Shown here: piece after piece, positions 1,978 to 46,771 of the stretch
Layout of the letters: every line of letters starts with the position of its first letter
Numbering within the stretch: position 1 is the first letter of the stretch
Source: Candidatus Tayloriibacteriota bacterium
Lineage (GTDB): Bacteria; Patescibacteriota; Minisyncoccia; Phycocordibacterales; PALSA-1337
Direction: 5' to 3'
Length of the DNA: 64,000 nt
NCBI GenBank assembly: GCA_903857825.1
Contig: CAIOGI010000001.1
Location: 40,698 to 104,697, forward strand
The notes under the pieces: generated by a model
Seen by the model: the letters and a program-made list of their open reading frames with translations, nothing else
The model's database searches: none
Told to the model about the DNA's origin: nothing
Position numbers and translations under genes: made by a program

Positions 1978-4176
1978 TTATTCACTCTTCCTATGAAATT
2001 TTTTGTGGATTTTCTTTAATTCTGTATCAGTAACATGTGTATAAATCTGAGTTGTATTGATATTGGCATGGCCAAGAAGCATTTGCACTGAGCGCAGATC
2101 TGCACCATTTCTCAACAGGTCTGTCGCGAAGGAATTATGTGAAATAAAACCATCAGTAATAAAGTTTGAGTATTTATTAATGGTAAAATCAAATACCTCG
2201 GTTTTACCTTTAATATTTTCTATTTTTTTTATCTTTAACCACCGAATATGCGAATTCAGTTTAAGTAAATTCTCAAGTATATCAATCGATCCATCTTTTA
2301 AGCCATTTCCTCGCAAAACAGTTATGATTTTCATTAATAGATTAGCAGACAAACAGATATTTTTATATCTGGTTAGATTTTTTATATTACATTTATTTTG
2401 TATTTCATATACCAATCCCTTATTTTGCAACAATATTGGATATAATTTCCTTAGTATTTGCTGACATGGTATTTTTTCATCCTCAATAATTTCGGGATTT
2501 AATATCGTCTTTTGTTTAAGGGTTTGAATTAAAGACTTAAAGTTTCTCTGGTTTTTAAAGGTGGTTATATGAAGCACATAAATAGTATTGTCAATTATTT
2601 TTCCTTGTGGGAGCTTAACTTTTCTATCTCTTTTTAATAAAATAGAGTCAATATTAAGTATTAAAAATAAAGATTGAACATCTTTTAACAGGTCTTTGCT
2701 TGTTGAAAATACTTTTATAGTTCCATTATTGCCTTCCGCATCATAATATCCAGCAAGAAATGCGCTTATCTCTTCCTTGCTCGCCTTAAACAGACTCTCG
2801 GGAACACGCCTATATTTTGAGTATTGTGTAATACCAAGTTTTCTCAGTTTTCTTAATAACTTAACATCATAAATATATAAAGAATGTGATTTGCTTTCTT
2901 TATTTGGACCAATTATTGGCTTCCTACCAATTATTTTTTCTGCCAAATTTGCATAATATTGAATATGCTTTATGTCCTTATCATTGATAATAATTCCTCG
3001 CCTTCTTTCACTTAAGGTACCATCTCCTAAAATATATCCCGTCAACCTCCAAAAATCCTTGCCCTCACCATCTTTTTTGTTAAAAGAAAAATCTACATGT
3101 TTTATGCCTGCAACATAGTCTCCAACAGATAGATCCTGCATTTGTCTTTCAACAATCCCATTTGTATTTACTGTAAAAAATGTATGATATGGTGTAGCTA
3201 TAATTTCTCTGCCATCTGCCCACATGCTTGATAGATTCTCTGTCGAATGCTTTTTTTTGGCAATAACCTTACCTTTCATTATTTGGCCATTATTAAGGTC
3301 TAGACTCATTACCATGCTTTGCTTGGAATTATTCAATTTATTTGCAGAAAAAATCCCAGAGCTTGTAATAATCCTTGTGTCTGAGTGTAAGCAGTGGCGA
3401 ATAACGTGTGGCGTTACTTTCTTGGAAATACCACTATTTATGGCATACTGCTTGACTATTCTCTCAACTGTTCTTCTATCTAGTCTTAGCGAATCCTTTT
3501 TCTGAGCCATTTTCTCATTCTTCTTGCCTGTAATTTGCACAAAAAGTGCATCGTCCATATCATCTCTTTTATCTAAATATTTTTGTACAGCGTTTCTTGC
3601 ATCATCTGAAATAAATACCACACGAACCTTCTCACCCTTTCCTCTGACAGACATTTCATCTAATTTTAAGTTTATATCTCTAGGGAGGGCACATAACTCC
3701 GACACACGAAGACCTGTTGAAAAAAGTAGCTCTAGCATGGCTTTATCTCTCAAGCCCTTCAAATTGCTTGTGTCTGGGGCGTTAAGCAAACGAACAAGTT
3801 CTTCAATAGTTATCAGATCTAATGATCTTTCTGGTACTTTTGCTAGCTCTATTCTATCTGGAGATAGAGAAGTAATGCTCTGTCTAGCCAGATATTTGAG
3901 AAAGGCACGCAATGCTATCAAATAGTAGTTCTGTGTACGTTTCTTTAGGGTTGTTGGGGCCAGTCCTTTCTCATTTCTAGCCTCTTGTCTGTTAAGCCAA
4001 ATACGGAAATCGCGTACAACATTGTCAGTAATACCTTTTGGATCTTTTATCTTCGTATAATCTAAAAAACGGCTCAGGTAGCGATCATAATTACGCACAG
4101 TATTCAGGCTTCTACCTTTTTCTATTTCAGTATATTGAAGAAATTCGGTTTTTAGTGAAAAAAGATTTTGCGACAT
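1978..4176 (-). CDS. XerC/XerD-family tyrosine recombinase whose catalytic C-terminal domain is interrupted by a roughly 420-aa intein
   Basis: The N-extein has the typical Xer N-terminal region ([13 protein letters not shown]...) and [13 protein letters not shown] (the Arg I region). The sequence ...TPHVIRH is then split from [34 protein letters not shown], which carries the catalytic Tyr. Confidence 0.85.
2134..3393 (-). mobile_element. Intein (Cys1 ... His-Asn, with a +1 Ser) carrying a LAGLIDADG homing endonuclease, inserted directly after the catalytic RH of the recombinase
   Basis: It starts [13 protein letters not shown] and has block B TPYHT. Two LAGLIDADG-type motifs are present ([12 protein letters not shown] and [11 protein letters not shown]). 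It ends FISHN followed by S. Extein coordinates were worked out from residue counts. Confidence 0.8.
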
Positions 4177-4216
4177 GATTTAAGTATACAATGCCAATCT
4201 TTTTCACACCCCCTTG

Positions 4217-4246
4217 ACAAAAAACTAGGGTATGCTATGATATCAC
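4217..4246 (+). promoter_or_regulatory. Near-consensus sigma70-type promoter (TTGACA-N17-TATGAT) pointing towards rpsO
   Basis: Sequence ccTTGACAaaaaactagggtatgcTATGATat. Confidence 0.5.
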
Positions 4247-4460
4247 CAACGTGTCTGAGCTTACTGCTATTGTTTATACCTATTGGCAAGGTAGGCAATG
4301 GCAATCGAACACCGCACAAACAATGGCCCCACGTGCTAAATGCGAGAGCACAGGCCACAACAATGAAAGGGAATCGCCATGATCAGAGGCCCGCCCCAAC
4401 TAGTTCGCCCCGTATCCCAATTTCGCACAGCTATGTGGAAAGAAGAGGATGCGGGGCATT
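4247..4460 (+). ncRNA. Candidate structured non-coding RNA or a long structured rpsO leader. The segment is GC-rich and sits downstream of the consensus promoter. Its class is unassigned.
   Basis: About 210 nt, visibly GC-rich in an AT-rich genome. It has no RBS or plausible ORF. A complementary pair cgccccgtatcc / ggatgcggggc is present. A second promoter-like TTGCAA-N17-TAGTAT lies just upstream of rpsO. Confidence 0.3.
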
Positions 4461-4502
4461 TAATTTGCAAATTTTATACATTCATGCTAGTATATCCCAA
4501 TC

Positions 4503-4772
4503 ATGTTAACAACAAGACAGAAGACAAATATCATAAAAAACGTAGCAATACACGATAAAGATACTGGCTCTCCAGAGGTTCAAATTTCAATATTAACAAA
4601 GAGAATCGAAGAATTAGCTGGTCACTTGAAAAAGCATAAGAAAGACAATCACTCAAGACGAGGACTTCTAGCCATGGTAGCCGATAGACAGACTCACATG
4701 AACTATTTAAAGAAGAAGAGCACTAAGCGTTATAACAGTATCGCGAAGAAACTAGATATAAAGGCAAAGTAA
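4503..4772 (+). CDS. rpsO: 30S ribosomal protein S15
   Basis: GSPEVQISILTKRIEELAGHLKKHKKDNHSRRGLLAMV matches the S15 signature. Confidence 0.95.
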   Translation: MLTTRQKTNIIKNVAIHDKDTGSPEVQISILTKRIEELAGHLKKHKKDNHSRRGLLAMVADRQTHMNYLKKKSTKRYNSIAKKLDIKAK

Positions 4773-4865
4773 AATTGGACTCGCTTGCTTGCGCTCGGAA
4801 GCTCCTCTTTTTTTCACAAGTTCAAAAAAGTAGGACTTCCTCACCGCGTCGAGTCTCAATTTTAC
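4769..4865. repeat. Palindromic intergenic repeat element, copy A. Its termini are gtaaaattggactcg ... cgagtctcaattttac, and it overlaps the rpsO stop.
   Basis: The same element recurs at 36090-36188, with variants at 44676-44702 and 45180-45317. Confidence 0.65.
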
Positions 4866-4977: not shown

Positions 4978-5613
4978 ATGTCAGTAATTAAACATAAAGA
5001 ACAGCGTGTTGGAGTTTTTATAGATACTCAAAACATTTATCATAGTGCGAAAAATCTATATCATTCAAAGGTCAATTTTGGTCAAATAGTAAAAGATGCG
5101 GTAGGGGAGAGATCTCTTATCCGTGCAGTCGCTTATGTCATAACAACAGAGGCAGGTGACGAGAAAGCATTTTTTGAAGCACTCACAAAAATGGGCATAG
5201 AAACTAAAACAAAGGATCTTCAGATATTCGGTAGTGGAGCAAAGAAGGCAGACTGGGATGTGGGACTTGCAATAGATGCTGTGAAGCTAGCACCAAAACT
5301 AGATGCAGTCATTCTAGTAACGGGCGATGGAGACTTCGTACCACTTGTAGAATATTTGCAGACAAATGAGGGGTGTCAGGTAGAAGTTGTTTCCTTTGGT
5401 AAATCAACATCAACAAAACTACGTGAAGTAGTAGATGATTTCTTTGACCTTGATGAAAGTGTTTCTAAATATTTAATCGGTCATCAAAATAGATTTCAAG
5501 GATCAGGAAAGGGTAAGGCACCTATTCGCCAAGGCTTCAAGAAGCGAGGACCAAAAGATGCGACAGTTGGAAATGTTGCAGATGAAATAGCGGATTTGAG
5601 TGGGCAGGAGTAA
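4978..5613 (+). CDS. NYN/LabA-like domain protein (a predicted RNase-like PIN-related fold)
   Basis: VFIDTQNIY, DVGLAIDA and ILVTGDGDFVPLV are the LabA/NYN acidic motifs. Confidence 0.7.
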   Translation: MSVIKHKEQRVGVFIDTQNIYHSAKNLYHSKVNFGQIVKDAVGERSLIRAVAYVITTEAGDEKAFFEALTKMGIETKTKDLQIFGSGAKKADWDVGLAIDAVKLAPKLDAVILVTGDGDFVPLVEYLQTNEGCQVEVVSFGKSTSTKLREVVDDFFDLDESVSKYLIGHQNRFQGSGKGKAPIRQGFKKRGPKDATVGNVADEIADLSGQE

Positions 5614-5634
5614 AAATTTTACACTATGAAACAA

Positions 5635-5669
5635 AAGACCTTGTGGCGGAAGTTCCCAAGGTCTTTTTG
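5635..5669 (+). terminator. Rho-independent terminator hairpin (aagaccttg...caaggtctt followed by a T-run)
   Basis: A perfect 9-bp stem followed by TTTTT. Confidence 0.6.
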
Positions 5670-5736
5670 ATTGATATAATTATGGATATTAAAAACTATT
5701 TTATAAATAATTATTAACTTTAATCTAAATATAAAT

Positions 5737-6561
5737 ATGAATGAAATAAAGGATATTGCATTGTTTGAGGGAAAGGAGGTGAGAAAAGTTTGGCATAATG
5801 AAAAATGGTACTTTTGTGTTAATGACATTGTGCTTGTTCTTACAGAAACCGTTGATCCAGTTGATTATATAAAGAAAATTAGACAACGAGATGAAGAACT
5901 TGGCAAAGGGTGGGGACAAATTGTCACCCCCCTTTCAATGCAGACAAGAGGAGGAAAACAGATGATCAATTGTGCAAACTTAGAAGGTATATTCAGAATA
6001 ATTCAATCTATTCCGTCACCTAAGGCAGAACCTATTAGGTTATGGCTCGCTCGTGTAGGCACCGAAAGACTTGAAGAAATTCAAGACCCTGAACTCGCTA
6101 TGGATCGGGCAAAAGCTATTTATGAAAGAAAAGGATATCCGAAGGACTGGATAGACAAGAGAATGAGGGGAATAAATGTTCGTCATAGCCTAACAGACGA
6201 ATGGAAGAACAGAGGAGTAAAGAAGGGTATTGAATTTGCTATTCTTACTGACGAAATATATAAAGGCACTTTTGACATGACTGCACAGGAGTATAAAAAG
6301 CATAAGTCATTAAATAAGGAGAATAATCTCCGTGATCATATGAATGACATCGAACTCATATTGACTATGCTTGGAGAGGCTACAACAACGAAGTTAACGC
6401 AAGATAGAGATTCACGTGAATTTGATAAGTTACAAAAAGATGCGGAAGAAGGTGGGGAAGTGGCAGGAAAAACTAGGAAGGACATTGAAAGTAGGACGAA
6501 GAAGACGGTAATAGCTAAAGAAAATTATTTGCCGAGAACAAGAAAAAATCTAAACTCATAG
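5737..6561 (+). CDS. DinD-family (DNA-damage-inducible protein D) / Bro-N domain protein
   Basis: It has a Bro-N-like N-terminus (KVWHNEKWYFCVNDIV...). The central FAILTDEIYKGTFDMTAQEYKKHKSL...DHMNDIELIL aligns with E. coli DinD FAIFQNRGYQGLYGG...DHMGSTELAANL. Confidence 0.6.
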   Translation: MNEIKDIALFEGKEVRKVWHNEKWYFCVNDIVLVLTETVDPVDYIKKIRQRDEELGKGWGQIVTPLSMQTRGGKQMINCANLEGIFRIIQSIPSPKAEPIRLWLARVGTERLEEIQDPELAMDRAKAIYERKGYPKDWIDKRMRGINVRHSLTDEWKNRGVKKGIEFAILTDEIYKGTFDMTAQEYKKHKSLNKENNLRDHMNDIELILTMLGEATTTKLTQDRDSREFDKLQKDAEEGGEVAGKTRKDIESRTKKTVIAKENYLPRTRKNLNS

Positions 6562-6778
6562 TTGATAGTTTACTGCCAACTATCAACCATAACATACAAA
6601 ATATACGACTAGAATATAAACTAGACTAATAATTAGACCAATAACTAGACTAATAATAGACTAATCTATAGTTATTAAATGGCTATATTTATAACTATAT
6701 ATGGATTTAGCTCAAAGTTATACCTTAAAAGCTAGTAGAAAAATTGATAGAAAAGTTAACCCATGATATACTCATATT

Positions 6779-8002
6779 GTGAACAATGAAACTATAGCAA
6801 AAAACAACTCAAATCCATTCAAAAAAGGCTTTCTATCTCATTTCAGCCTTGATTTTGACTTGTTTAAAATACAGGATTCAGATATACAGAGATTAGATAA
6901 TAAACTAAATTCCTTCGAAAAGATATTTCTGGACCCAAATATAGAAAAGACCCTAATAAGCAAGAATGAGTTACTTGCCTCTTTTGCAATATCAAAAGCA
7001 GAAAATTCTCAGCTCACATTAGAAGAAGCGGAAGATATCTATAAATTTGTTATAGAAAATAAAGATTTTGATTTTATAAGTAAAAAAATATCAAGTGGTA
7101 AAAAACTAGAAAAAAAAGACTATGAAAAGTTAGAATTCTTTAATATTGCTAGCACCTTTAGAGCTTTAAATGCAAATCCTTTTATGATTCAAGAACTGGA
7201 TGATAAATTGATTAGGAAAATCCATTTTGATATAACAAAAGGGCTAGATATTTTTGCTAAATATCTACCAGAATTTACTCTATATAAATCAGGAAACTGG
7301 CGTGATAATAATGAAATTCGTGTTGGAAAATATACTCCATCAGATTTCAAAGATATTCCAAATTCTATTTCTGATCTTATTTCATGGTTTAAAGATAATC
7401 AGTCCATAACAAATGTAGCTATATTTCATACTGCTCTATATGCAATACACCCTTTCAACAATGGGAATAAAAGAGTTTGTAGAATAATTGAGCATATTTT
7501 ATTAAAAATAATAGGGCTTAATAAGAATAATCTTTATAGTAATTCGTATTTTTATCATAAAGAAAAAACTAGATATTACAAGTATCTTTTAAGTTCACTA
7601 GAGAGAAGGAATCTTAATATTTTCTCATCTTTTATACTAGAGTCTATCGTCTTCTCTATTTTGGGAGTGATCAAAACTAGTCTAGAAATAAAAAGGCAAC
7701 AATACATTGCCCAGTCTGAACTTGATAAGGCAGTACAAAAAGCAATTAAAGGGCTTATTAAAAGAAGGGAATTGCAATTTAAAAACTTCTATAAAATAGT
7801 TAAAAACCAAATTTCCAAGCAAACATTCGTAAATTATCTAGAAAAAGCAGTAAGTGCTGGAATTCTTATTAAAAGAGATGCAGGCAAAGCAACATATTAT
7901 AGGTTAAATATAGAAACGGATGAGGAAAAGTTATTAGCGGAGTTACTTGAGGATATAAAAGGGAAGGTTGGGGTTATAGATGAGGATTTGAGGTTGGTGT
8001 AG
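6779..8002 (+). CDS. Fic/Doc-family protein with a non-canonical Fic motif (HPFNNGNKRVCR) and a C-terminal winged-helix-like region. The track start is a GTG.
   Basis: The HPFxxGNxR core is present. It deviates from canonical HPFx(D/E)GNGRxxR by having N at the D/E position and K in place of the second G. Confidence 0.65.
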   Translation: MNNETIAKNNSNPFKKGFLSHFSLDFDLFKIQDSDIQRLDNKLNSFEKIFLDPNIEKTLISKNELLASFAISKAENSQLTLEEAEDIYKFVIENKDFDFISKKISSGKKLEKKDYEKLEFFNIASTFRALNANPFMIQELDDKLIRKIHFDITKGLDIFAKYLPEFTLYKSGNWRDNNEIRVGKYTPSDFKDIPNSISDLISWFKDNQSITNVAIFHTALYAIHPFNNGNKRVCRIIEHILLKIIGLNKNNLYSNSYFYHKEKTRYYKYLLSSLERRNLNIFSSFILESIVFSILGVIKTSLEIKRQQYIAQSELDKAVQKAIKGLIKRRELQFKNFYKIVKNQISKQTFVNYLEKAVSAGILIKRDAGKATYYRLNIETDEEKLLAELLEDIKGKVGVIDEDLRLV

Positions 8003-8022
8003 AAATGTGATGTAAAAGAAAA

Positions 8023-8040
8023 CCGTACATCTCTGTACGG
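8023..8040. terminator. Bidirectional hairpin (ccgtaca-tctc-tgtacgg) between convergent genes
   Basis: A perfect 7-bp stem with A- and T-rich flanks. Confidence 0.45.
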
Positions 8041-8085
8041 CCGTTGTGGGTAATGCCCCGCTGAAACATTACCTTGATTTGCGTG

Positions 8086-8616
8086 TTATTGTGCGGCACG
8101 CTTTGCTTCATCTAGGTGTTGCCTGAGTTGCCCAAGAAACCTTCTTGAGTTCACAGTGATACCTTGTTTTTCTTCCTCCTCAAATAGCTTGATAAATTTT
8201 GTCAGAATCTCAACCGCAATTTTTGCGTCAAGAAATTTCTGGCAAAACCACCAAGCCATGGTCGGTCTGTAGTAGGCGAGTTCACGTGCAGCCTGCTTAA
8301 GATCTTTCTCGTTCATCCGAAGCATTCTCGTCGTCTGAATTACCCCCTCACCATATCCGGCCTTAGCGTATTCGGTCCAAGCTGACTCCAACACAATTTT
8401 CCTGTGGATTCTGGATAGTCCCCTAACCAGACTGGTAACGCCTTGTGTATCCCAAGTTGCCTTATCGGTCTTTGGGTGAATGATGTAAGAAGGGAAGTTT
8501 GTGGTATTCATGTACTTTGTCTTTCTTTTCTGGTGTTCAATGGCACACCTACTTAAAGCCGTATTTTGTTGTAAAGAACTAACTCTATGAATCTGCGACA
8601 TCAGTCGTAGACTCAA
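8086..8616 (-). CDS. Hypothetical protein with visibly higher GC than its neighbours
   Basis: A long ORF with coherent codon usage. I recognise no motifs in it. Confidence 0.4.
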   Translation of the reverse strand: MSLRLMSQIHRVSSLQQNTALSRCAIEHQKRKTKYMNTTNFPSYIIHPKTDKATWDTQGVTSLVRGLSRIHRKIVLESAWTEYAKAGYGEGVIQTTRMLRMNEKDLKQAARELAYYRPTMAWWFCQKFLDAKIAVEILTKFIKLFEEEEKQGITVNSRRFLGQLRQHLDEAKRAAQ

Positions 8617-8695
8617 TGAAGTCGAGGATTTTCTTAGGATCCTCGATGTTGAAAGTTTTAGGCGTTAGCCACGGTTACTTCACCGAGTGGAGTTA

Positions 8696-9070
8696 CTACT
8701 GTGCCTTATGTACCTTAACCATTTGGATGATTAAATGCGCCACCTCCTTCAACGGGAAAGGGTGTTCGTACTTTCCCAAGAGCCGGTAAGTGCAGTAAGC
8801 ATCTATTGCCTTGTGGTCACTGGTAGTCACAAGTGTAATGTCTTTCGGGATAAGTCTTGCGACTTCCGCTCCTGAAAACATATGCATCTGATGATCCAGC
8901 AGGACGAGCTGGCAACCATTGATTTTCTTCAACACCTGATTAATTGATGTGTTCATGGAAACCACGATTGACACCGCCTCAAATCCCGCTACCTGCACAG
9001 CTTGGCTGAGGTCTTTTACGAAGTATTGGTCGTCATCAACCACCGCTATTTTTGTTGTTCTATTTTTCAT
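8696..9070 (-). CDS. Stand-alone response-regulator receiver (CheY-like REC) domain protein
   Basis: IAVVDDD, and LVLLDHQM with the phospho-acceptor Asp. It is about 124 aa and has no output domain. Confidence 0.7.
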   Translation of the reverse strand: MKNRTTKIAVVDDDQYFVKDLSQAVQVAGFEAVSIVVSMNTSINQVLKKINGCQLVLLDHQMHMFSGAEVARLIPKDITLVTTSDHKAIDAYCTYRLLGKYEHPFPLKEVAHLIIQMVKVHKAQ

Positions 9071-9256
9071 AATCTGTTTGTTTTAATGTTCTTATCTGAC
9101 AATAGTATATCATCTCTGTCAATTCTTGTCTAAATTACGTCATTAATTATAGATGTATCTACTGAGTAGATGGCTAGGTTACTATATACATTGAGTATAG
9201 TTAAATTGTTGTCAGTATTATTGACATATGTATGCTATATTTGATATACTGATCCT

Positions 9257-9991
9257 ATGGAAAATATGTCTCAAATATTAGAGAAAATAGGACTTTCAAG
9301 CAAAGAATCGGCTATCTATCTGGCCTTACTCAAATATAACAATGCAACCGTACAGGATATTGCAAATGAAGCAGGAATTAAACGCCCAACCACATATCTA
9401 ATATTAGATGAGCTTAGAAAAAAGGGTCTGGTTCTAAAGATCCCCCATGCAAAGAGAGCGATATTTCAAGCCAGGGCACCAGATGAGGTATATGAACAGG
9501 TATCAAACAATTTGAATAATTTTGAAAAGATATTACCTAAACTTCGATCAATAAATCCATCTAGAAACACTGTAAAAACTTTATATTTCGAAGGAGCAGA
9601 AGGTTTAAAGGAATCATTAAACTACAGGCTCGCAGAAATGAAAGACAAGACGCTTGTAGGCTTTTGGGCAAAAGATAGTGGTTTACCAAAAAAGATTCTC
9701 GAATTATTTGATAATTGGAATAAAAATCTATTAAAATACAATATTACTATGGGAGGGGCAACACCAGATCATGAATCAACTAGGAAATATCTACAACAAT
9801 ATCCACAATTTTATAAATACCTTAAATTAGTACCCGAAAAAGACTACTCTTCTGATGTATCAATAGACGTAAGCGATGATTTTGTAAGAATAATAGATGG
9901 ACATGAATTAAAAGCAGTTATTATAGAAGATAAAAGGGTTGCTGATGCTGTAAAACAGATATTTGCACTTGCTTCTAAAAATATTCAATAG
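9257..9991 (+). CDS. TrmB-family HTH transcriptional regulator
   Basis: The N-terminus ILEKIGLSSKESAIYLALLKYNNATVQDIANEAGIKRPTTYLILDELRKKGLV matches the TrmB wHTH. Confidence 0.65.
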   Translation: MENMSQILEKIGLSSKESAIYLALLKYNNATVQDIANEAGIKRPTTYLILDELRKKGLVLKIPHAKRAIFQARAPDEVYEQVSNNLNNFEKILPKLRSINPSRNTVKTLYFEGAEGLKESLNYRLAEMKDKTLVGFWAKDSGLPKKILELFDNWNKNLLKYNITMGGATPDHESTRKYLQQYPQFYKYLKLVPEKDYSSDVSIDVSDDFVRIIDGHELKAVIIEDKRVADAVKQIFALASKNIQ

Positions 9992-10016
9992 TATAGTCAA
10001 AATTATAATTAAAATT

Positions 10017-10064
10017 CTATAGTTAACCCATGAAATCTAAGCAATACACCCTTGAGGTCGGTCC
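10017..10064 (+). repeat. Duplicated pnp 5' end (a pseudo-start encoding MKSKQYTLEVGPLL*). This is direct-repeat copy 1 of the 37-bp core acccatgaaatctaaRcaatacacccttgaggtcggt.
   Basis: It is identical to 12460-12496 apart from one mismatch. Confidence 0.75.
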
Positions 10065-10068
10065 TCTC

Positions 10069-10833
10069 TTATAGGTTTTCCTTTACAAAATCAACAGCAT
10101 ATCTAAACCTTTCTCCTAGTTTTTCTCTTTCACCAATAGCCACAAACGGCTTCATATCTGCAATAAATTCTTTTTCACTAAATTTATCTAATCTCTTATA
10201 AATTTCTTCTTTATTCTTCAAATCCAATCCGTAATATTTTAATTTCTCTTCTATCATAACACCATTAAAGACGGCCCCGAAACCAAGTAAGTAGGCCAAA
10301 TCATACAAATCCCTCCCTTTCTCTCTGGTCATGATTGCTCTTATTTTCTCAGAGAAAATTTCATTCATTGATAGATGATGAATATACGAATTAAAGATGA
10401 TAGGGAAATCACTTTTTATTGTAGATTTTGAAGGCTCTATTGGCTTTTCTCTAAAAGAAAAATCAAATTTTATAAAAACTTTATAATCTATAAAATCTGG
10501 CTTAACTGTAAGTAGATAGGTCTTACCAGAAATAGCCTCTCTTTCTTTAAATGAAAATCCTGAATTTTCTTTACAAATTAAAACAAAAAAATCTTTTATA
10601 AAGCCTTCAAACTCTTTATCTTGCATATCTACAGTAAAATCAAGATCTTCTGAAAATCTTGGGGCTCCAAAAATAATATGCACGGCTGTTCCTCCTTTAA
10701 AATAAACTTTTTCACAACCTTTCATAGAATATAATTTATCAAGACACAATAACTGTACATACTCTCGCAATACAATAGTCTCATTTGTCTTAAATTTCTT
10801 TGTTAGTTCATGTATTTGATCCTTTGTTATCAT
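10069..10833 (-). CDS. AbiEii/AbiGii-family nucleotidyltransferase toxin (type IV toxin-antitoxin / abortive infection)
   Basis: KGGTAVHIIFGAPRFSEDLDFTV is the AbiEii signature. Confidence 0.75.
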   Translation of the reverse strand: MITKDQIHELTKKFKTNETIVLREYVQLLCLDKLYSMKGCEKVYFKGGTAVHIIFGAPRFSEDLDFTVDMQDKEFEGFIKDFFVLICKENSGFSFKEREAISGKTYLLTVKPDFIDYKVFIKFDFSFREKPIEPSKSTIKSDFPIIFNSYIHHLSMNEIFSEKIRAIMTREKGRDLYDLAYLLGFGAVFNGVMIEEKLKYYGLDLKNKEEIYKRLDKFSEKEFIADMKPFVAIGEREKLGERFRYAVDFVKENL

Positions 10834-11450
10834 AGTATTTTATTAGTTTTTAATATTTCAATGATCTTATCTTTTACTATTCCTTTTTTTATATTATTTA
10901 CATATTCATCGAGTCTTTTCTTATCTATATTTGATAAATCATATTCGCTCATATCTATCTGTCTCTTTCCGTTTATAGACAAATATATCTGATCCAATAA
11001 TGCTTTTTCAGGAAGTGCAATGAGAAATCCATCCTTTTTCTCATAACCCCAGAATAAATCCTTATTAATATGAGAATAACTGTAGATATTGCCATCAATT
11101 TCTTTAATTTTTGTCTTTTTAACTGTTGCGCTAGTTATCTCAAAAGGGAATTGGGAAAGAATACCATGAAAATTCAAAGCTGATTCAAAAGAGATATATG
11201 ATGGTTCGTATAGGAAGTTTGCAATAAGAAAATTACTTGGCTTTTTACTTGGGATTATGTATTTACCCATTTCAAGTCTTTTTAAAATACCATTCATTAC
11301 AAGGCTATTTATCAAGTCGAAGGGGGCTTGATGTCTACTAATACCCAAAAGGTTTCGCAAGGTTTCACTGGGAATAATGCCAATATCTGATTGTAATATT
11401 GCTTCAGTTGCCTTTACTTTATTAAAGTTTTGATTATTCGATGATTCCAT
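10830..11450 (-). CDS. AbiEi-like antitoxin / transcriptional regulator (wHTH). Its stop overlaps the AbiEii start by 4 nt.
   Basis: It sits upstream of AbiEii and is translationally coupled to it (ATGA overlap). The N-terminal region ...LRNLLGISRHQAPFDLINSLVMNGILKRLEMGKY is HTH-like. Confidence 0.55.
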   Translation of the reverse strand: MESSNNQNFNKVKATEAILQSDIGIIPSETLRNLLGISRHQAPFDLINSLVMNGILKRLEMGKYIIPSKKPSNFLIANFLYEPSYISFESALNFHGILSQFPFEITSATVKKTKIKEIDGNIYSYSHINKDLFWGYEKKDGFLIALPEKALLDQIYLSINGKRQIDMSEYDLSNIDKKRLDEYVNNIKKGIVKDKIIEILKTNKIL

Positions 11451-11678
11451 ACACTACGTACTATACCAATTCTGTGGAATCATTACAAGTGGTGAATGTG
11501 GATAACTATATGAAAAGCGCAAAATACCTATATTAAATGTCATTTATATATGTTGCAAAATAAAGGTATTCTGATGATTTCGCATTTAAGTAATGTATAC
11601 TTGACTTAAAAGTGAGATTTAAATTAAGTATACTTAACTAAAATAAGGAAACTATACTACTTCTGATATAATATCCTC

Positions 11679-12424
11679 ATGAACAACGAATTTAAAAAAA
11701 AAACGCACAGCAAATACTATTAGAAAGGGCAGAAATTTCTTTACAAAAAGCAAAAGAACTTATACTCGAGCATATTCCAAATGAAGAAATACAAGCTATA
11801 TATGTAAAAGGGAGCTATATACAAGGGGAACTTAAAGAAGACAGTGATATTGACATAGTAGTGATTCTTAAAACAAAAAAATATTTACCTGATGTCTATA
11901 AACTAACAGATGATTTTGGTAATACTACAGATATGCCTTTTCAAGCTGTAGCATATACTATGGATGAATTGCAAACTGGAGTACTAGCCCAAAATAGAAC
12001 AAAATCGCCTACCACTATTAGTATCTTTGTTAAACAACTAGATCAACTTCCACTCATATATGGCCTAAAACCAGAAGGAAAACTCTATACTCGTACAGAT
12101 ATAAAAGATTTAACCGCTCAAATAGGGAACTTTAGAAAAATGTTTCTGCCAGATTTCGAGAAAGGGAACTTTCACTTCAAATCCCTAGTCAAACAAGTAT
12201 TATGGTTAGTAGAAAGGGAACAAAGGGCGCTGGGTATATTACCAGAATATTCTTGGCAACGCCTTGCGAATTCTATAAAAGATCCGGATCATATTGTCCA
12301 TAATACTTTAAAATATAGAAGGGGTGGAGAAGTTTCAGATAAAGAAAAGGATGAGTATATGAATAAATTAAATGAGTATTTGGAGATGTTGGGAGATAAA
12401 TATAAAAAGACAACAAATATTTAG
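11679..12424 (+). pseudogene. Pol-beta-superfamily nucleotidyltransferase gene (GS...DxD motif KGSYIQGELKEDSDIDIVVIL) interrupted by a frameshift at an A10 homopolymer (11694-11703). The track ORF is the GTG-initiated remnant 11861-12424.
   Basis: ATG at 11679 reads MNNEFKKK and then hits a stop. A -1 shift or an 11th A restores one continuous roughly 248-aa ORF, MNNEFKKKNAQQILLERAEISLQ...KGSYIQGELKEDSDIDIVVIL... Confidence 0.6.
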
Positions 12425-12459
12425 AAGCTATACCAATACCCCACATTCTGCTAAACTAT

Positions 12460-12496
12460 ACCCATGAAATCTAAACAATACACCCTTGAGGTCGGT
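12460..12496 (+). repeat. Direct-repeat copy 2 (the genuine pnp start region)
   Basis: See the feature at 10017-10064. Confidence 0.75.
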
Positions 12497-14551
12497 GGTA
12501 AGACCCTCACAGCAGAATTTAATGATTTAGCAGAGCAAGCTCACGGTTCTGTAATGATGCGATACGACAACACTGTCGTGCTCGCTACAACAGTTATTAG
12601 CAAAGAAGAAAAAAAGGGGGATTTCTTTCCACTCACTGTTGATTATGAAGAAAAGTTTTATGCAGCTGGGAAAATTTCTGGTGGTAAATATAATAAAAGA
12701 GAGGGAAGACCAAGTGATGAAGCCATTCTTTCTGGAAGAATAGTGGATAGGACTATTCGTCCGCTTTTTGATCAACACATTCGTAATGAAGTGCAGGTCA
12801 TACTTACTGTACTTGCTTCTGGCGAAGGAGACCTACATATTCTCGGAGTAATTGGCGCATCACTTGCACTAGGTACATCAAAAATCCCTTGGAACGGTCC
12901 AGCTTCATGTATTCATGATGTAAATCCAAACTACGACCTTGTCGCTTGTGGTAAAGATGGACTAATAAATATGATTGAAGTTGCTGGCAAGGAGGTTGAT
13001 GAAGAAATCGTAAACAAGGCTTTAGTGAATGCTAGTGTAGAAATTGAAAAAATTCAGTCATGGCAAGAAGAAATAATAAAAGAAATCGGAAAGACAAAAA
13101 TGATAATTCCGAAGCCAGAACTTACTGCAGGCACAGAGGAGCTCTTTAATGTTGAAATTACAAACAAACTAGGTGAATACATTTTTGGATCAATTGGTAA
13201 AGATAGAATGGGGGAAATAGCTGACATTTGGACAAAATTATTTATAGAAAAATTCCCTGAGGGGAATCTAGGGCTGGCACAGGAATTTCTTGATGAAAAA
13301 ATAAATGACTTAATACACGCAGAAGCAATAGAAAATGAAAAGAGACCGGACGGTAGAAAGATGGACGAAATAAGACCATTATTTGCAAAGGTTGGTGGAA
13401 TCTCACCGATTCTGCATGGAACAGGGACATTTTATAGAGGAGCAACACACGTTCTTTCAGTACTTACACTTGGCGGGCCTGGGGATGTACAAGAAATAGA
13501 TGGAATGGAAATTACTGAAGCAAAGAGATTTATGCATCATTACAATTTCCCTCCATTCTCAACAGGCGAGACAGGCAGAGTCGGCGGAATGAATCGCAGA
13601 ATGATCGGCCACGGAGCTCTCGCAGAGAAGGCCCTACTACCTATTATTCCAGCAAAAGAACTATTCCCTTACACAATACGCATAGTGTCAGAAGCCTTTT
13701 CATCAAATGGTTCTACATCGATGGGATCTGTTTGCGGATCAACATTAGCACTTATGGATGGAGGGGTTCCTATAAAGGCACCAGTGGCAGGTATTGCATC
13801 TGGACTTATGATGCGAGAAGCGAAGGCTGGCGTAATGGGTAAGCTTTTTGGAAAGAAAAATTATGAATATAAAGTTCTAACAGATATACAAGGACCAGAA
13901 GATCATCATGGTGATATGGACTTCAAGGTTGCAGGTACAAGACAAGGCATCACAGCAATACAAATGGATGTAAAAGTTAATGGTATTCCATTAGAAATTT
14001 TGAAAGAAGCATTCGAAAAGGCAAAATTAGCTCGTTTTCAAATCTTGGACTTGATAGAAAAAGAAATCACCAAGCCAAGAGAAAAGATATCACCAAACGC
14101 TCCTGAGATAGTTATGACAGCGGTCAAGCAAGATCAGATCGGCTTGGTTATAGGTACAGGAGGAAAGACAATCAAGGAAATAAAAGAGAAAACTGGTGTA
14201 GATGACATCACAATAGAAGACGATGGAACAATATTCATCACAGGAAAAAATGGTACCGCTCAAAAGGCAAAAGAAATTATATACAATATGACACGTGAGT
14301 ACAAAGCAGGGGAGAGATTTGAAGGAGAAGTTACAAAGATCACAGACTTCGGTGCATTCGTGAGGATTGCCGGTTCAACAGAGGGACTTGTGCATGTTTC
14401 AGAAATAGCAACATTCCGAGTCGATAGAGTTTCTGATTATCTAAAAGAAGGAATGAAAGTACCAGTAATCATTCGTGAAGTAGATGAAAGAGGAAGATTG
14501 AGTCTATCTATAAAACAAGTTGATCCAAACTTTATAAAGAAAAAAGCTTAG
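12464..14551 (+). CDS. pnp: Polynucleotide phosphorylase / polyribonucleotide nucleotidyltransferase
   Basis: Two RNase PH domains, then KH and S1 domains (…GLVIGTGGKTIKEI…, …GERFEGEVTKITDFGAFV…). Confidence 0.95.
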   Translation: MKSKQYTLEVGGKTLTAEFNDLAEQAHGSVMMRYDNTVVLATTVISKEEKKGDFFPLTVDYEEKFYAAGKISGGKYNKREGRPSDEAILSGRIVDRTIRPLFDQHIRNEVQVILTVLASGEGDLHILGVIGASLALGTSKIPWNGPASCIHDVNPNYDLVACGKDGLINMIEVAGKEVDEEIVNKALVNASVEIEKIQSWQEEIIKEIGKTKMIIPKPELTAGTEELFNVEITNKLGEYIFGSIGKDRMGEIADIWTKLFIEKFPEGNLGLAQEFLDEKINDLIHAEAIENEKRPDGRKMDEIRPLFAKVGGISPILHGTGTFYRGATHVLSVLTLGGPGDVQEIDGMEITEAKRFMHHYNFPPFSTGETGRVGGMNRRMIGHGALAEKALLPIIPAKELFPYTIRIVSEAFSSNGSTSMGSVCGSTLALMDGGVPIKAPVAGIASGLMMREAKAGVMGKLFGKKNYEYKVLTDIQGPEDHHGDMDFKVAGTRQGITAIQMDVKVNGIPLEILKEAFEKAKLARFQILDLIEKEITKPREKISPNAPEIVMTAVKQDQIGLVIGTGGKTIKEIKEKTGVDDITIEDDGTIFITGKNGTAQKAKEIIYNMTREYKAGERFEGEVTKITDFGAFVRIAGSTEGLVHVSEIATFRVDRVSDYLKEGMKVPVIIREVDERGRLSLSIKQVDPNFIKKKA

Positions 14552-14623
14552 AAAGACTTACGCTCAAATACATATTCAGTAAAATAGCATAGAGCGAATA
14601 TTCTTATGTTATAATAAATATCG

Positions 14624-16360
14624 ATGGATGAAGTAAAAACTAATCAGAAAAATGCTTTAGGAAAACAGGTATCTGGTAATATAATACCAGATGAACATCC
14701 TCTGCACATGCTCAACAATCAATCTGACCCAATAAGAAGACGCCGCCCACTATCTCAACAAGCTATCAGAACATACGAAAGCGATATGGCGGATTTGCTT
14801 GGGAAAAAAGAGACAACAGTTGCAACAATGGCAATTGCCGAGCAAAGAAGAAAGGAAGAAAAAACAACAATTGTGCGTCAGCCTCTAATAGAAAAAGTAA
14901 TTGTTCAGGAAAAAAGGGAAGAAATGAATACACATAAGCCTATTCAAAAAAGAGATGTGTTAGAAAATTCTAGAGTATATACACCACCAACAAAGATCAA
15001 GGTTGAATCACCAGCAATCATTCCAGAAAAACAAAATAAAGTAGAAGAGCATGCACTAGACAAATATAATGAAGATACAGCGCTGAGCAATGAGCCTGTT
15101 ATTGAAACCAAGCAAGCACCAATTTTATCTAATCTTATAAGCGCCGAAGACTTTACTAACCCAGAACCCGCAAGAGAGACGCCCATTCTAAAAATGGATA
15201 CTTTTGTTGAGTCGATGGATAAGCCTATTATTAGAGAAAATGATGTGCAACCGATTAAAGAAGATGTTTCAATCAAGCCAGATCAAGCAAATATAGAGAA
15301 ACTTTTCACGCCAGAACCAATAGGAGAAGTTGCCGTTCTTGAACCTGAACCAATTGTCGAGCCTGTAGTTGAACAAGAATCTCCCATCATCCCTGAAACG
15401 ACTTACAGGCCAGCACCTGCTCCATTCACTTTTCCAAAGTATACACCTCCAGTACAGGTTAAAAATTCTAGTTTACAAATTGAGGACAAAGAAGATGCAG
15501 TACCTGAGTTCATTGATAACATTGCCTCAAAAAAGGAGGCCTCTGTTTTTGTTCCAAAGAAAACATTTACCACAATAACCGATGAGTCCGCAGGTACTGG
15601 AAATTACAGTAGAAAGATTTTTATGGTTATAGTAAGCATAATACTTATAGTCGGCGGTGTGGGAGCTGGATACTATTTATACCTAAAAAGCCCTCTTGCG
15701 AAACCAACTGTTGTGCCGATTAGTACAAGCAAGGTTCCAAGTATAATTAAACCAGAAACTCAAAAGATAGTTCCTATAGGAAACCTGAAGGGTGTCTCTT
15801 TGGAAGAAAAGATTAGAAGTGTTGTTGTTTCTGATGCTGTAGCTGCAGGAGTCTTGAATGAGATTGTATTAACACAGACCACAGGTTCAAGCACAATAAG
15901 GGTAACTGCTTTAAATTTTATAAAGACAATTGGATACCAGACTCCAGAGATATTCAAAAGATCACTTATGAACATATGGATGCTTGGTGCATATGGATCA
16001 GATGAAGGAAATGCACCCTTTATAATATTCAAAACTGATTTCTTCCAGAATTCATATGCAGGAATGCTAGATTGGGAGAAAAATATGGTGGACGATTTAG
16101 CTATTTTATTAAATTTTGAAGAAAAAATAAAAAATCAAAACAACACAGGAACCAGCACAGTTAGAGGATACTTGGCTGTTAGAGGTAGGTTTGAAGACAA
16201 AATTATTCTTAATCGTGATGTAAGAAAGTTTACAAATGAAAATGGTGTATCTTTACTTGTATATTCTTTTATAGACAAAGATACCTTAGTAATCACAACA
16301 TCCGAAAATGTCTTACGAAGTATAATACAAAAGCTTGAAAAGCAAACGCAGATAAGGTAA
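14624..16360 (+). CDS. Hypothetical single-pass membrane protein. The cytoplasmic half is Pro/Glu-rich and a transmembrane segment lies near residues 333-355.
   Basis: The hydrophobic stretch IFMVIVSIILIVGGVGAGYYLYL is present. No recognisable catalytic motif. Confidence 0.45.
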   Translation: MDEVKTNQKNALGKQVSGNIIPDEHPLHMLNNQSDPIRRRRPLSQQAIRTYESDMADLLGKKETTVATMAIAEQRRKEEKTTIVRQPLIEKVIVQEKREEMNTHKPIQKRDVLENSRVYTPPTKIKVESPAIIPEKQNKVEEHALDKYNEDTALSNEPVIETKQAPILSNLISAEDFTNPEPARETPILKMDTFVESMDKPIIRENDVQPIKEDVSIKPDQANIEKLFTPEPIGEVAVLEPEPIVEPVVEQESPIIPETTYRPAPAPFTFPKYTPPVQVKNSSLQIEDKEDAVPEFIDNIASKKEASVFVPKKTFTTITDESAGTGNYSRKIFMVIVSIILIVGGVGAGYYLYLKSPLAKPTVVPISTSKVPSIIKPETQKIVPIGNLKGVSLEEKIRSVVVSDAVAAGVLNEIVLTQTTGSSTIRVTALNFIKTIGYQTPEIFKRSLMNIWMLGAYGSDEGNAPFIIFKTDFFQNSYAGMLDWEKNMVDDLAILLNFEEKIKNQNNTGTSTVRGYLAVRGRFEDKIILNRDVRKFTNENGVSLLVYSFIDKDTLVITTSENVLRSIIQKLEKQTQIR

Positions 16361-16370
16361 AATAAGCTTC

Positions 16371-16736
16371 ATGAATAAGAAAGATTTAATATATTTCAAA
16401 GACAAGCTGTTAAAGGAAAAAGCTCTACTAGAAGAGGAATTATCCACTATTAGTCGTGTAAACCCAGACAATGCAAATGATTGGGAAGCAACGACTACAG
16501 ATATCGAAGTCGATGCCGCAGACGAGAATGAAGTCGCTGACAAAATGGAAGAACTTGAGGACAATAAATCAATCATAAGACAATTAGAGCCACAATTAAA
16601 CGAAGTAAAAGCAGCTCTTGAGAGGATTGAGTCTGGCACATATGGCGTATGCGAGATATCTGGAGAACCTATAGAAAGAGAGAGGTTGGAGGCAAGTCCA
16701 TCAGCAAGAACATCAATGAAACACATGAAAAAATAG
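16371..16736 (+). CDS. DksA/TraR-family protein, a Cys-poor variant of the C4 zinc finger
   Basis: A coiled-coil N-terminus, then C-terminal GTYGVCEISGEPIERERLEASPSARTS, which resembles the DksA finger but keeps only one Cys. Confidence 0.5.
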   Translation: MNKKDLIYFKDKLLKEKALLEEELSTISRVNPDNANDWEATTTDIEVDAADENEVADKMEELEDNKSIIRQLEPQLNEVKAALERIESGTYGVCEISGEPIERERLEASPSARTSMKHMKK

Positions 16737-16842
16737 GCTTAGGCCTGTTTTTTTATTGTCAATTTAAAAAAGTTATTGTGAAACTACTAAAAACAGTGGT
16801 TTTCTTTATAATTTCTTAATAATTTTATTTTAAACTGGCAGC

Positions 16843-18372
16843 ATGAGTATAGCAAAAACTTACAGCGCACAATTATCTGGTCTACAAGCACATATTATCA
16901 ACATAGAAGTTGACTTATCAAATGGTCTTCATGCCTTTGTGATCATCGGACTAGGCGACAAGGCAGTCGAAGAGTCAAAAGATAGGATATCAGCCGCTAT
17001 AAAAAATACTGGTTTTACATCGCCAAAACAGAAAAATCAAAAAGTTGTGATCTCTCTCGCCCCAGCAGATATTCGAAAGGAGGGACCGTCCTTTGATCTT
17101 GGCATGGCGCTTGCTTATCTATCTGCCAGTGGTGATATTGATTTCGATCCAGAAAATAAAATCTTTCTTGGTGAGCTTTCTCTTGAAGGAGAGATAAGAA
17201 AAATCAGCGGAATACTGCCCTTGGTCAATGGAGCAAAGAAATTCGGCTTTAAAGAAATATTTATGCCAGAAGGAAATGCTGAAGAAGCAGCTCTTATCAG
17301 TGGAGTAAAGATTTATCCAATAAAGACATTGGATCAGGTTATTGCACATCTTACTCAGAGAAAAGATTCTAAGATACCAATTCAAAAAAAGACAAAAATA
17401 AAGTTAATTAATGAAAAGTTTGAAACTAATTTCAATTTAATTCAAGGACAAGAAACAGCAAAAAGGGCATTGGAAATAGCAGCCGCTGGAGGGCACAATA
17501 TAGCAATGTATGGCCCTCCAGGAACAGGAAAAACCATGCTGGCAAAAGCCTTACAAACTATTTTACCTCCTTTAAATGAAGAAGAGATCCTTGAAGTAAC
17601 TAGCATACACTCTATTGCAAAGATTCTAGACAAATCCTTTATTACGAAGCCACCCTTTAGATCACCACATCATACATCCTCATATGCTTCTATCGTCGGT
17701 GGGGGTTCTTTTCCAAGACCAGGAGAAATCACCCTTGCACACAGAGGTGTACTTTTTCTTGATGAATTTCCAGAGTTTGATAAGAAAGTAATAGAATCAC
17801 TAAGACAGCCACTTGAGGAACATTCAATAACAATATCCAGAGTAAGAGGCTCCATAAATTATCCAGCAAAATGTATTCTTGTGGCATCAATGAATCCATG
17901 TCCATGTGGGTATGGAAAGGGGAATAAATGTAAATGCACTGACTATGATATAAGTAATTATAATAAAAGAATATCAGGTCCTATAGTAGACCGTATCGAC
18001 ATTTGGGTTTCTGTATCAAAGATTGAGTATGATAAATTATCAAACAAGTCATCGAACAATGAAGATTCTAAAGACATATTAAATCGTGTAATCAAGGCTC
18101 GCAAAATTCAAGAACTACGTTTTGTCAAAAATAAAATATTTAATAAAAAGTATAATAGTGAAATATCTATAGCTAATATTGAAAAAATGATCTGTCTAAG
18201 TGACAAAGTAAGAAAAATGTTAAAAGATTTTTCAGAAAAACTAGAATTATCAGCCAGAGCGTATCATAAAGTAATCAAACTAGCACAAACAATAGCTGAC
18301 TTAGATAATTCAAAAGAAATTACAGAGTCTCACCTATTGGAAGCATTGCAATACAGAAAAAGGGAATATTAG
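16843..18372 (+). CDS. comM: YifB/ComM-family Mg-chelatase-like AAA+ ATPase
   Basis: A Lon-like N-domain, Walker A GPPGTGKTMLA and GVLFLDEFPEF. Confidence 0.9.
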   Translation: MSIAKTYSAQLSGLQAHIINIEVDLSNGLHAFVIIGLGDKAVEESKDRISAAIKNTGFTSPKQKNQKVVISLAPADIRKEGPSFDLGMALAYLSASGDIDFDPENKIFLGELSLEGEIRKISGILPLVNGAKKFGFKEIFMPEGNAEEAALISGVKIYPIKTLDQVIAHLTQRKDSKIPIQKKTKIKLINEKFETNFNLIQGQETAKRALEIAAAGGHNIAMYGPPGTGKTMLAKALQTILPPLNEEEILEVTSIHSIAKILDKSFITKPPFRSPHHTSSYASIVGGGSFPRPGEITLAHRGVLFLDEFPEFDKKVIESLRQPLEEHSITISRVRGSINYPAKCILVASMNPCPCGYGKGNKCKCTDYDISNYNKRISGPIVDRIDIWVSVSKIEYDKLSNKSSNNEDSKDILNRVIKARKIQELRFVKNKIFNKKYNSEISIANIEKMICLSDKVRKMLKDFSEKLELSARAYHKVIKLAQTIADLDNSKEITESHLLEALQYRKREY

Positions 18373-32064: not shown

Positions 32065-32069
32065 TATAC

Positions 32070-32522: not shown

Positions 32523-32634
32523 GTGGGGAAATGCGCTTGATAAGACAGGAGGAATCTTTTTGTACAACTAATTTCACACGAGCTGTACACAGTGAATGAT
32601 GAAATAGAAGTGCCCTTGTGGTAAAATATATGTA

Positions 32635-33651: not shown

Positions 33652-33653
33652 AC

Positions 33654-46691: not shown

Positions 46692-46771
46692 ATTCTACTA
46701 CTTGAAAATGACTTGTAAACTTATCAGGATAGAAAATTTGTTTTGTGGTTTGGGTTTGATATACTCTACAA

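Follow-up and report, generated by a model that had tools for sequence, protein, structure and literature searches.

A duplicated pnp start in Paceibacteria: a recombination scar linked to a horizontally moving AbiE operon

Campbell-type integration yields one copy of the shared homology, the insert and a second copy, and the target gene stays intact if the incoming circle carries its 5′ end and promoter. Such integration is known mainly from plasmids and from laboratory constructs with hundreds of base pairs of homology. Elements of the SXT/R391 family, which are conjugative and about 100 kb long, encode their own tyrosine integrase Int together with Xis (PMC2791158), and cis-mobilizable elements (CIMEs) are decayed integrative elements that have kept attL and attR and lost their integration genes (PMC5704250). 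Integrase-free hot spots that diversify via recombination at the core genes on either side have also been described (PMC5635113). Here we examine a stretch of 64,000 nt (the window) from Candidatus Tayloriibacteriota bacterium (contig CAIOGI010000001.1, positions 40,698 to 104,697), an uncultured, ultra-small bacterium whose genome is placed in the Paceibacteria (Patescibacteria, or candidate phyla radiation, CPR). In this window the start of pnp, the essential gene for the RNA-degrading polynucleotide phosphorylase, occurs twice, on either side of an AbiE operon and a nucleotidyltransferase (NTase) gene. The feature is the scar of a recombination event, linked to an AbiE operon that moves horizontally, in a hot spot conserved in the CPR; events of this kind are known, and this is a further example.

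The locus resembles several described systems. Like an SXT/R391 element, it has foreign DNA in the 5′ end of a conserved gene, near-identical short sequences on both sides and a gene that remains functional; unlike such an element, it has no integrase, its cargo of 1.45-2.4 kb is a composite of two modules, and only one type of cargo is accompanied by the duplication. With a CIME it shares an integrase-less segment, bounded by direct repeats of the end of a target gene, at a place where islands accrete. However, a CIME descends from an integrative and conjugative or mobilizable element and is moved by the integrase of a related element, and none is detectable here or in relatives. Compared with hot spots of horizontal transfer that are free of mobile genetic elements (PMC5635113), the locus is alike in having a different cargo in each relative, no mobile-element genes and mosaic flanking genes; but a plain double crossover in the flanks leaves no duplication, whereas the pnp stub here places at least one crossover inside the 5′ end of the flanking gene. 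Homology-facilitated illegitimate recombination (HFIR) at type VI secretion system (T6SS) and Rhs arrays (PMC5361080) likewise has conserved genes as anchors, one illegitimate junction and an orphan fragment beside defence or toxin-immunity cargo. There, 3′ effector parts and immunity genes are displaced downstream in series, whereas here a 5′ stub lies upstream, only one stub has statistical support, and the topology is a better fit to a single crossover by a circle. The outcome of Campbell-type integration has a layout identical to the one found here, although here the homology is ~37-70 bp and the event is a natural one in an uncultured CPR lineage.

The duplicated pnp start and the AbiE block

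The initial annotation had reported a 37-bp direct repeat with one mismatch at this site, and the repeat is real. The 37-mer occurs exactly twice in the 64 kb, at 10026-10062 (0 mismatches) and at 12460-12496 (1 mismatch, G/A), while 100 dinucleotide-preserving shuffles gave 0 matches. Extended leftward by the repeat search, the pair spans 46 nt at 89% identity (10017-10062 and 12451-12496). The downstream copy of the 37-nt repeat (+ strand; -4 to +33 of the live gene) is the true start of an intact pnp of 695 aa (12464-14551, +; two RNase_PH domains, KH and S1 in Pfam). The upstream copy (10017-10062, +) consists of the promoter-proximal flank and first 11 codons of pnp (-13 to +33), and matches the native pnp 5′ regions of two related loci, L087 and L090, at 45/46 and 44/45 positions, respectively. 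It opens an open reading frame (ORF) of 14 codons, MKSKQYTLEVGPLL*, at 10030-10074 (+), and is a dead pnp N-terminus, as had been proposed; in the equivalent ORF of locus L096 the ATG is mutated to ACA. The single G/A mismatch is the third base of pnp codon 4, where AAG upstream and AAA downstream both encode Lys. Because this codon is AAA in every relative examined, the G of the dead copy is derived.

An assembly artefact, named at the outset as what could undo the repeat, is rejected. Both copies, G/A difference included, recur in L001 and L002, two further assemblies made from different samples; over 21.5 kb, L001 matches the window at 99.995% identity, with a single gap as the sole difference.

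The two copies have unlike flanks. The 13 nt before the ATG of the dead copy, CTATAGTTAACCC, are the native pnp flank of L087, L090 and L102. The flank of the live copy, CTAAACTATACCC, equals that of L087 only at -24 to -11 and -4 to -1; at -5 to -10 it differs and resembles other lineages, and it has CTGCTAAACTA in common with the spacer between NTase and pnp in L093. From comparison with L087 and L093, the promoter-proximal flank of the live copy (-24 to -5) is 12440-12459 (+), with an extended -10-like TGCTAAACT. Upstream of the dead copy, a 24-nt segment with homology to L096/L097 (9993-10016, +) contains a -35-like TAGTCA, which forms part of a promoter-like pair, TAGTCA-18-TATAGT, at 9994-10023. 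Since the flanks are unlike, the two copies were not copied from one target, and the very long target duplication suggested as one origin of the repeat is excluded.

Between the copies lie two modules with separate histories. The first is AbiE, in which abiEi (antitoxin/regulator; 10830-11450, -; PADLOC AbiEi E=1.3e-34) is upstream of abiEii (nucleotidyltransferase toxin of the AbiE type IV toxin-antitoxin/abortive-infection pair; 10069-10833, -; Pfam PF08843 E=1.9e-28, PADLOC AbiEii E=2.7e-32) in a single operon, the genes overlapping by 4 nt (10830-10833). By gene content the pair qualifies as an AbiE system, with gene order, overlap and strong family scores like those of other systems in these families; the genes are ordinary, and the chromosomal context alone is unusual. 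AbiEii is 89% identical in amino acids to its counterpart in L096 and 86% to that in L099. The upstream region of abiEi (11451-11512, -) forms the right end of an AbiE core that, by homology, is common to three species, and homology with L096 and L099 stops at ~11512 in all three contexts. At the other end, a spacer of six nucleotides, CCTCTC (10063-10068), bridges the illegitimate junction of pnp codon 11 with the stop codon of abiEii.

The second module (11513-12439, +), delimited by profile matches and by collinearity with L093, comprises a 166-nt upstream region and a Polbeta-type NTase gene at 11679-12424 (Pfam Polbeta E=2.5e-9, NTP_transf_2 E=7.8e-7; PADLOC PDC-S09). The profiles therefore support all three genes that the initial annotation had placed between the repeats, but its reading of the NTase as a pseudogene does not hold. 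The gene is out of frame here through a run of ten A at 11694-11703, whereas L001 and L002 have eleven and encode an intact 248-aa protein; a split into 34 and 187 aa is also called in one further public assembly. The difference is a slip of sequencing or assembly or else a polymorphism in homopolymer length, possibly phase-variable, and not decay.

Comparison with other carriers shows that the stub belongs to the AbiE module. In L096 the order is rpsO - NYN - 131 aa - 89 aa - [pnp stub] - abiEii - abiEi - pnp; the NTase is absent, and this locus is collinear with window positions 9993-11507 over 1516 nt at 85.4% identity, while its pnp is 79% identical to that of the window in amino acids and 76% in DNA. 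The common block comprises the 24 nt, the stub (-13 to +33), the junction and AbiE to ~11512. Here it begins 2 nt beyond the stop codon of a TrmB-type regulator gene, and in L096 within that of an 89-aa gene that is unrelated; its first 24 nt (from 9993) are identical at 17/24 positions. The junction between pnp codon 11 (+33) and the abiEii stop is identical in both species, with a spacer of 6 nt here and 7 nt (ATATTCT) in L096/L097, so the junction arose once and was carried with AbiE. In L096/L097 the AbiE core is directly bordered by pnp -16 to +33 on both sides, the copies matching at 27/27 positions over +4 to +30 (score 27.5 versus a background of at most 13.5). In L099/L100, in contrast, a bare AbiE core (window 10069-11516, 80% identity) lies between xer and an exonuclease gene (exo). 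The L099 locus has no pnp sequence, and its spacer totals only 36 nt, which makes a long duplication impossible there. Conversely, L093 is collinear with window positions 11642-14545 from NTase to pnp and has neither AbiE nor a stub or repeat.

For each genome, a second occurrence of its own pnp start was sought in the loci of 80 GTDB species and in those of 10 closer relatives. Background scores were 8-16, and only the window (34.5) and L096/L097 (27.5) stood above them, both bearing AbiE. Thus the search among relatives that had been suggested did find the duplication again, in the other AbiE-bearing species, whereas none of about 88 other loci, many of them with cargo, has a duplicated pnp start around anything other than AbiE.

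Profile annotation found no integrase or transposase between the copies (10063-12459) or in the gap between pnp and its conserved left neighbour, the NYN-domain gene. The search for a recombinase that had been proposed therefore yielded none between the copies; the window has 49 ORFs of at least 150 aa, and the sole recombinase found among them is a Xer homologue (1978-4176, -), a conserved core neighbour in the 80 species regardless of cargo. Measured against what defines an integrative element, the locus has direct repeats at a conserved target (the pnp 5′ end, 37 nt, 1 mismatch). It has no recombinase within or specifically associated with it; its content does not recur elsewhere as one unit with the same ends, as the NTase occurs alone in L093, AbiE without NTase in L096/L097 and bare AbiE in L099; and the same attachment site is not reused by different cargo. 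Of the attL/attR-type integration first proposed, therefore, the duplication, the pnp 5′ end as the joining place and the restoration of pnp by the downstream copy stand, while the integrase, the single cassette and the recurrent use of the site are not supported. As a separate observation, the Xer-type tyrosine recombinase of the window (732 aa) is split by an intein that bears a LAGLIDADG homing-endonuclease domain; the Xer proteins of L087, L096, L099, L101 and L103 are intein-less and 311-315 aa long.

Recombination signals and the origin of the scar

Silent sites indicate that AbiE has moved. Between the window and L096, third-codon identity is 0.70-0.73 for AbiE and 0.43-0.54 for most core genes (xer, pnp, dksA, comM, uvrD); between the window and L099, the values are 0.61-0.62 and 0.36-0.47. 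Because AbiE is closer than the core genes at silent sites, it has moved horizontally among these lineages. The flanking core genes are not uniform either. The window pnp is 97% identical in amino acids to that of P0001/L087, with a third-codon identity of 0.72 (comparison over 12464-18372), whereas dksA and comM are 75% identical to those of L087 (third-codon 0.40-0.42), and dksA, comM and uvrD are no closer to L087 than to L096 (0.40-0.47). The locus and its flanking core genes therefore constitute a recombination mosaic. The window also holds ruvB, ruvC, comM and a type II/IV secretion ATPase.

The 5′ end of pnp is itself unusual. Its first 33-66 nt show 91-100% identity between species whose pnp genes are otherwise 73-79% identical, and the conserved start is thus usable as a cross-lineage patch of homology. 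Over the first 66 nt (12464-12529), the starts of the window, L087, L090, L093 and L096 have 92-98% DNA identity among one another; such conservation implies either constraint at the nucleotide level or repeated exchange at the 5′ end. In contrast, the stub region of the window is 73% identical to that of L096, which is the level of AbiE third positions (70-73%). Since the stub diverges at the silent-site rate, it is a relic in neutral drift, and selection on the stub is rejected, with no constraint detected.

The best explanation, in which we place moderate confidence, is that a circle with AbiE and a short 5′ fragment of pnp entered via a single crossover with pnp. The abiEi-abiEii operon would have been joined by accident to a short pnp 5′ fragment ending at +33, and a Campbell-type crossover between this circle and the chromosomal pnp 5′ end would have left, in order, a dead upstream stub made of the recipient's own promoter and codons 1-11 (10017-10062), then the cargo, then an intact, reconstituted pnp downstream, which is exactly the structure of L096. 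The repeat would then be the surviving core of a duplication of roughly 50-70 bp, covering the pnp promoter and first 11 codons. The topology favours a single crossover, with a dead 5′ stub and its native-type flank upstream and the intact gene downstream. As no recombinase was found and recombination has occurred at the flanks, the most economical and most likely catalyst would be general homologous recombination of the host, acting on the conserved first 33-66 nt of pnp, rather than a dedicated integrase. Such catalysis agrees with what has been described for hot spots free of mobile genetic elements (PMC5635113) and for HFIR-type events from which gene remnants are left (PMC5361080). The joint at +33 would be internal to the block, so that it would be kept through later excision or transfer and would therefore be identical in two species. 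Since then, the stub and AbiE would have stayed one block, found in the second species as well, with the stub drifting neutrally, and the NTase between AbiE and pnp would be a separate, older resident. From these patterns we infer the circular intermediate, RecA-type rather than integrase catalysis, and the order of the AbiE and NTase events.

Several points weigh against this explanation. Homology of 37-50 bp is close to the minimum that RecA-type recombination can use. The NTase stands between AbiE and the live pnp, so either the circle carried the NTase too or a second event is needed; the third-codon identity of the NTase to L093 is 0.58, as diverged as the core genes (0.50-0.63), which makes it an old resident of the site. 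At +6, +9 and +18, each stub carries the variant of its own genome (A, T and C here; C, C and T in L096), and a stub that matches its own genome calls for gene conversion between the copies, for repeated integration, or for haplotypes that already agreed when the DNA integrated. An empty-junction pattern had 0 matches in the JGI metagenomes, a collection that lacks this species according to a scan with a degenerate pnp start, so that this null carries no information (the same scan yielded the relatives L085 and L086). Finally, the 13-14 contigs read for each of the exact pnp, AbiEii and TrmB proteins all have the full arrangement, with no empty site or circle among them.

The stub-AbiE block might be an active, integrase-free mobile cassette with its 50-70-bp pnp copy as a portable homology arm, a possibility to which we give a modest chance. 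Recombination between the copies would loop out the block together with anything between them, such as the NTase; the circle would re-enter the near-invariant pnp 5′ end of another Paceibacteria species, where AbiE would stabilise it. The junctions predicted are ...TCTATAGTTAACCCATGAAATCTAARCAATACACCCTTGAGGTCGGTGGTAAGACC for the empty site and ...CTGCTAAACTATACCCATGAAATCTAARCAATACACCCTTGAGGTCGGTCCTCTCTTATAGG for the circle. Such a cassette would explain the identical junction, the signal of horizontal transfer in AbiE and the match of the copies to the resident pnp haplotype.

Four rivals to entry by a circle rank, in decreasing order, as HFIR stacking, a recombinase acting in trans, tandem duplication, and transposition or artefact. 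In stacking, which we regard as unlikely, linear DNA with one island upstream of pnp would have been anchored on the rpsO/NYN side, its other end being joined illegitimately at codon 11 to a point beyond the abiEii stop of a recipient that already had AbiE-(NTase)-pnp; the stub would then be a passenger of the upstream island and not of AbiE. The mosaic state of the flanking core genes, the different cargo in each relative and the upstream flank of a type native in L087, L090 and L102 all agree with such stacking, and displaced gene remnants at T6SS/Rhs loci have been attributed to HFIR (PMC5361080). But the stub and the 24 nt before it travel with AbiE, and in L096 the block stands behind the 89-aa ORF instead of the TrmB gene, which weakens this reading; either the same illegitimate junction would be needed twice, or the stacking would have to be older than both islands. 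The +33 boundary, identical in two species, and the unusually conserved DNA of the pnp 5′ end would also suit a CIME-like or mobilisable element, with attL and attR in the pnp 5′ end, that was integrated site-specifically by a tyrosine or serine recombinase acting in trans. Precedents exist in SXT/R391 elements at prfC, which leave direct repeats at the 5′ end with the gene restored (PMC2791158), and in CIMEs that keep attL/attR without an integrase (PMC5704250). We nevertheless hold a recombinase in trans to be improbable, as the locus lacks every feature of it except the repeats. No recombinase was found in or near the interval, and Xer is conserved irrespective of cargo; the interval is composite; no cargo other than AbiE is flanked by a duplicated pnp start; and the left limit of identity varies, from -4 here to +4 in L096. 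The 37-mer also has no inverted-repeat core, judged by eye only, which is a weak test.

Tandem duplications with illegitimate join points are common, and an in-situ duplication of AbiE together with the pnp promoter and codons 1-11, after which the first AbiE copy was lost or replaced, would account for one novel junction in two species, the scar being the join point between pnp +33 and the 3′ flank of abiEii. It would, however, need a second precise deletion, and in both genomes the copies are near-identical in their coding parts but sharply different in their promoter-proximal parts, a contrast unexpected for copies of one resident sequence. The distinct lineage origins of the two flanks also speak against it, and we consider this origin very improbable. 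That direct repeats border an insert is all that speaks for target-site duplication by a transposase or casposase-like enzyme, or for an artefact of assembly. Both are contradicted, and we give them next to no credence: there is no transposase, there are no terminal inverted repeats (by eye, no dedicated tool having been run), the flanks are of different origin, AbiE sits within a 36-nt spacer in L099, and the repeat recurs in independent assemblies.

Several other candidates were considered and rejected. Annotation with Pfam and PADLOC-type profiles found no transposase or Cas1-like gene, as a transposon or casposon would have, and a transposon with target-site duplication was rejected on this ground, on the different origin of the flanks and on the L099 locus with no long duplication. 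Hijacking of Xer at a dif-type site was set aside because the 37-mer is unlike a dif-like palindrome, as judged by eye without a formal test. An integron cassette array was rejected since no repeat is common to the module boundaries in 5000-16000 and there are no attC-like repeats; the cassettes do not all face the same way, rpsO and NYN stand between Xer and the array, and the sole palindrome (6558-6587) is single-copy. A phage or plasmid origin was likewise rejected: neither the 37-mer nor relatives of AbiEii were found in viral contigs, and the AbiE block had no match among PLSDB plasmids.

The locus shows the shuffling of defence and toxin-antitoxin genes in reduced genomes of uncultured CPR bacteria, in which classical mobile elements are nearly absent. 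The dead pnp start is a rare physical trace of one such event, in which the crossover fell within the 5′ end of an essential gene and the gene survived. Should the block indeed cycle through host recombination and nothing else, it would be a minimal case of gene targeting with a homology arm that the cargo brings along; if not, it is an ordinary recombination scar whose main use is as a marker for following the AbiE block among lineages.

The NYN-pnp island and other features of the window

The scar lies in a conserved neighbourhood. The 80 species representatives keep one gene order, xer(-) - rpsO - NYN - pnp - (unknown) - dksA - comM, and the NYN gene (4978-5613, +; Pfam NYN E=1.2e-35 in the window), the conserved left border of the island, is found between rpsO and pnp in nearly all of these loci. 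The gap between NYN and pnp ranges from ~0 to 4.2 kb in the 80 species and reaches 6.85 kb here (5614-12459). It is empty in L008 and L101, whereas L087 has a periplasmic-binding protein gene and TrmB269, L093 the same two genes plus the NTase, L090 a 324-aa ORF, L103 two unknown ORFs, L086 a Fic gene directly upstream of pnp and L071 a Bro-N gene. The NYN-pnp gap therefore qualifies as a hypervariable island, or hot spot, between two core genes and without mobile-element genes.

In the window, the upstream part of the island (5614-9992) contains a Bro-N/PDC-S13 gene (5737-6561), a SoFic-like Fic gene (6779-8002), an unknown 176-aa ORF (8086-8616, -), a receiver-domain gene (8696-9070, -) and the TrmB-type regulator gene (9257-9991), none of which is at this site in most relatives. 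GC content across this part ranges from 27% to 46%, and the island is compositionally mosaic. The segment 8001-9000, with the 176-aa ORF and the receiver-domain gene, has 44-46% GC, compared with 27-30% for the neighbouring Fic and AbiE genes.

Little else in the island recalls pnp. The initial annotation had taken a weaker 13-bp echo of the repeat, placed at 6757-6771, as the mark of an earlier insertion. The echo, AGTTAACCCATGA, is at 6754-6766, and when native pnp 5′ regions were aligned locally with 5614-10016 it scored 14-15, within a shuffled null with a median of 13-14 and a 95th percentile of 15.5-16.5; an earlier insertion is thus not supported. A 15/16 match at 7439-7454, within the Fic motif, was rejected as such a mark for the same reason, as it is not above the shuffled null; by our own reading rather than a tool result, it encodes AIHPF of the Fic motif in another frame. 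A single further match in the island reaches significance, that of a palindrome of 30 nt (6558-6587; score 30.5, null maximum 19). It forms a perfect stem just after the Bro-N gene, is single-copy in the window, and also occurs 85 nt upstream of pnp in L090-L092 (L090 2529-2557). This match hints that some intergenic DNA of the island may derive from former pnp upstream regions, and falls short of showing a second stub. Between the palindrome and the Fic gene, the AT-rich spacer contains a 24-nt tandem repeat (6610-6657; 2 copies, 83% identity).

Other observations concern the neighbourhood of pnp and the rest of the window. In L005, L007, L009, L011, L012, L013 and L016, a structured leader (CGCCTCCAGATA.ACAGG ... 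CTGAAATCTGGAGGCGA) lies 60-150 nt upstream of pnp; it is absent in the window and its closest relatives. Directly after rpsO, a long hairpin (4770-4865; -32 kcal/mol, z=-5.15) includes a 31-nt piece that is 97% identical to L093 on the opposite strand, and the sequence is therefore palindromic. The stretch at 4191-4470, between xer and rpsO, is non-coding and has 48% GC, compared with about 35% for the genome. Rfam gives no match to it at E<=1, its + strand folds with z=-3.2, and it has two short pieces in common with the xer-rpsO gap of L103; it is possibly a small RNA.

Elsewhere, a second Bro-N gene and an unannotated 276-aa ORF lie between yebC and ruvB (45855-47602), and L094 has an NTase homologue (60% identity) at the yebC-ruvB spot. 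This suggests that the spot may be another variable site. Lastly, the region 30232-34796 encodes a VirB4/TraG-like P-loop ATPase and a protein resembling a type IV secretion system pilin, among several ORFs with no Pfam match.

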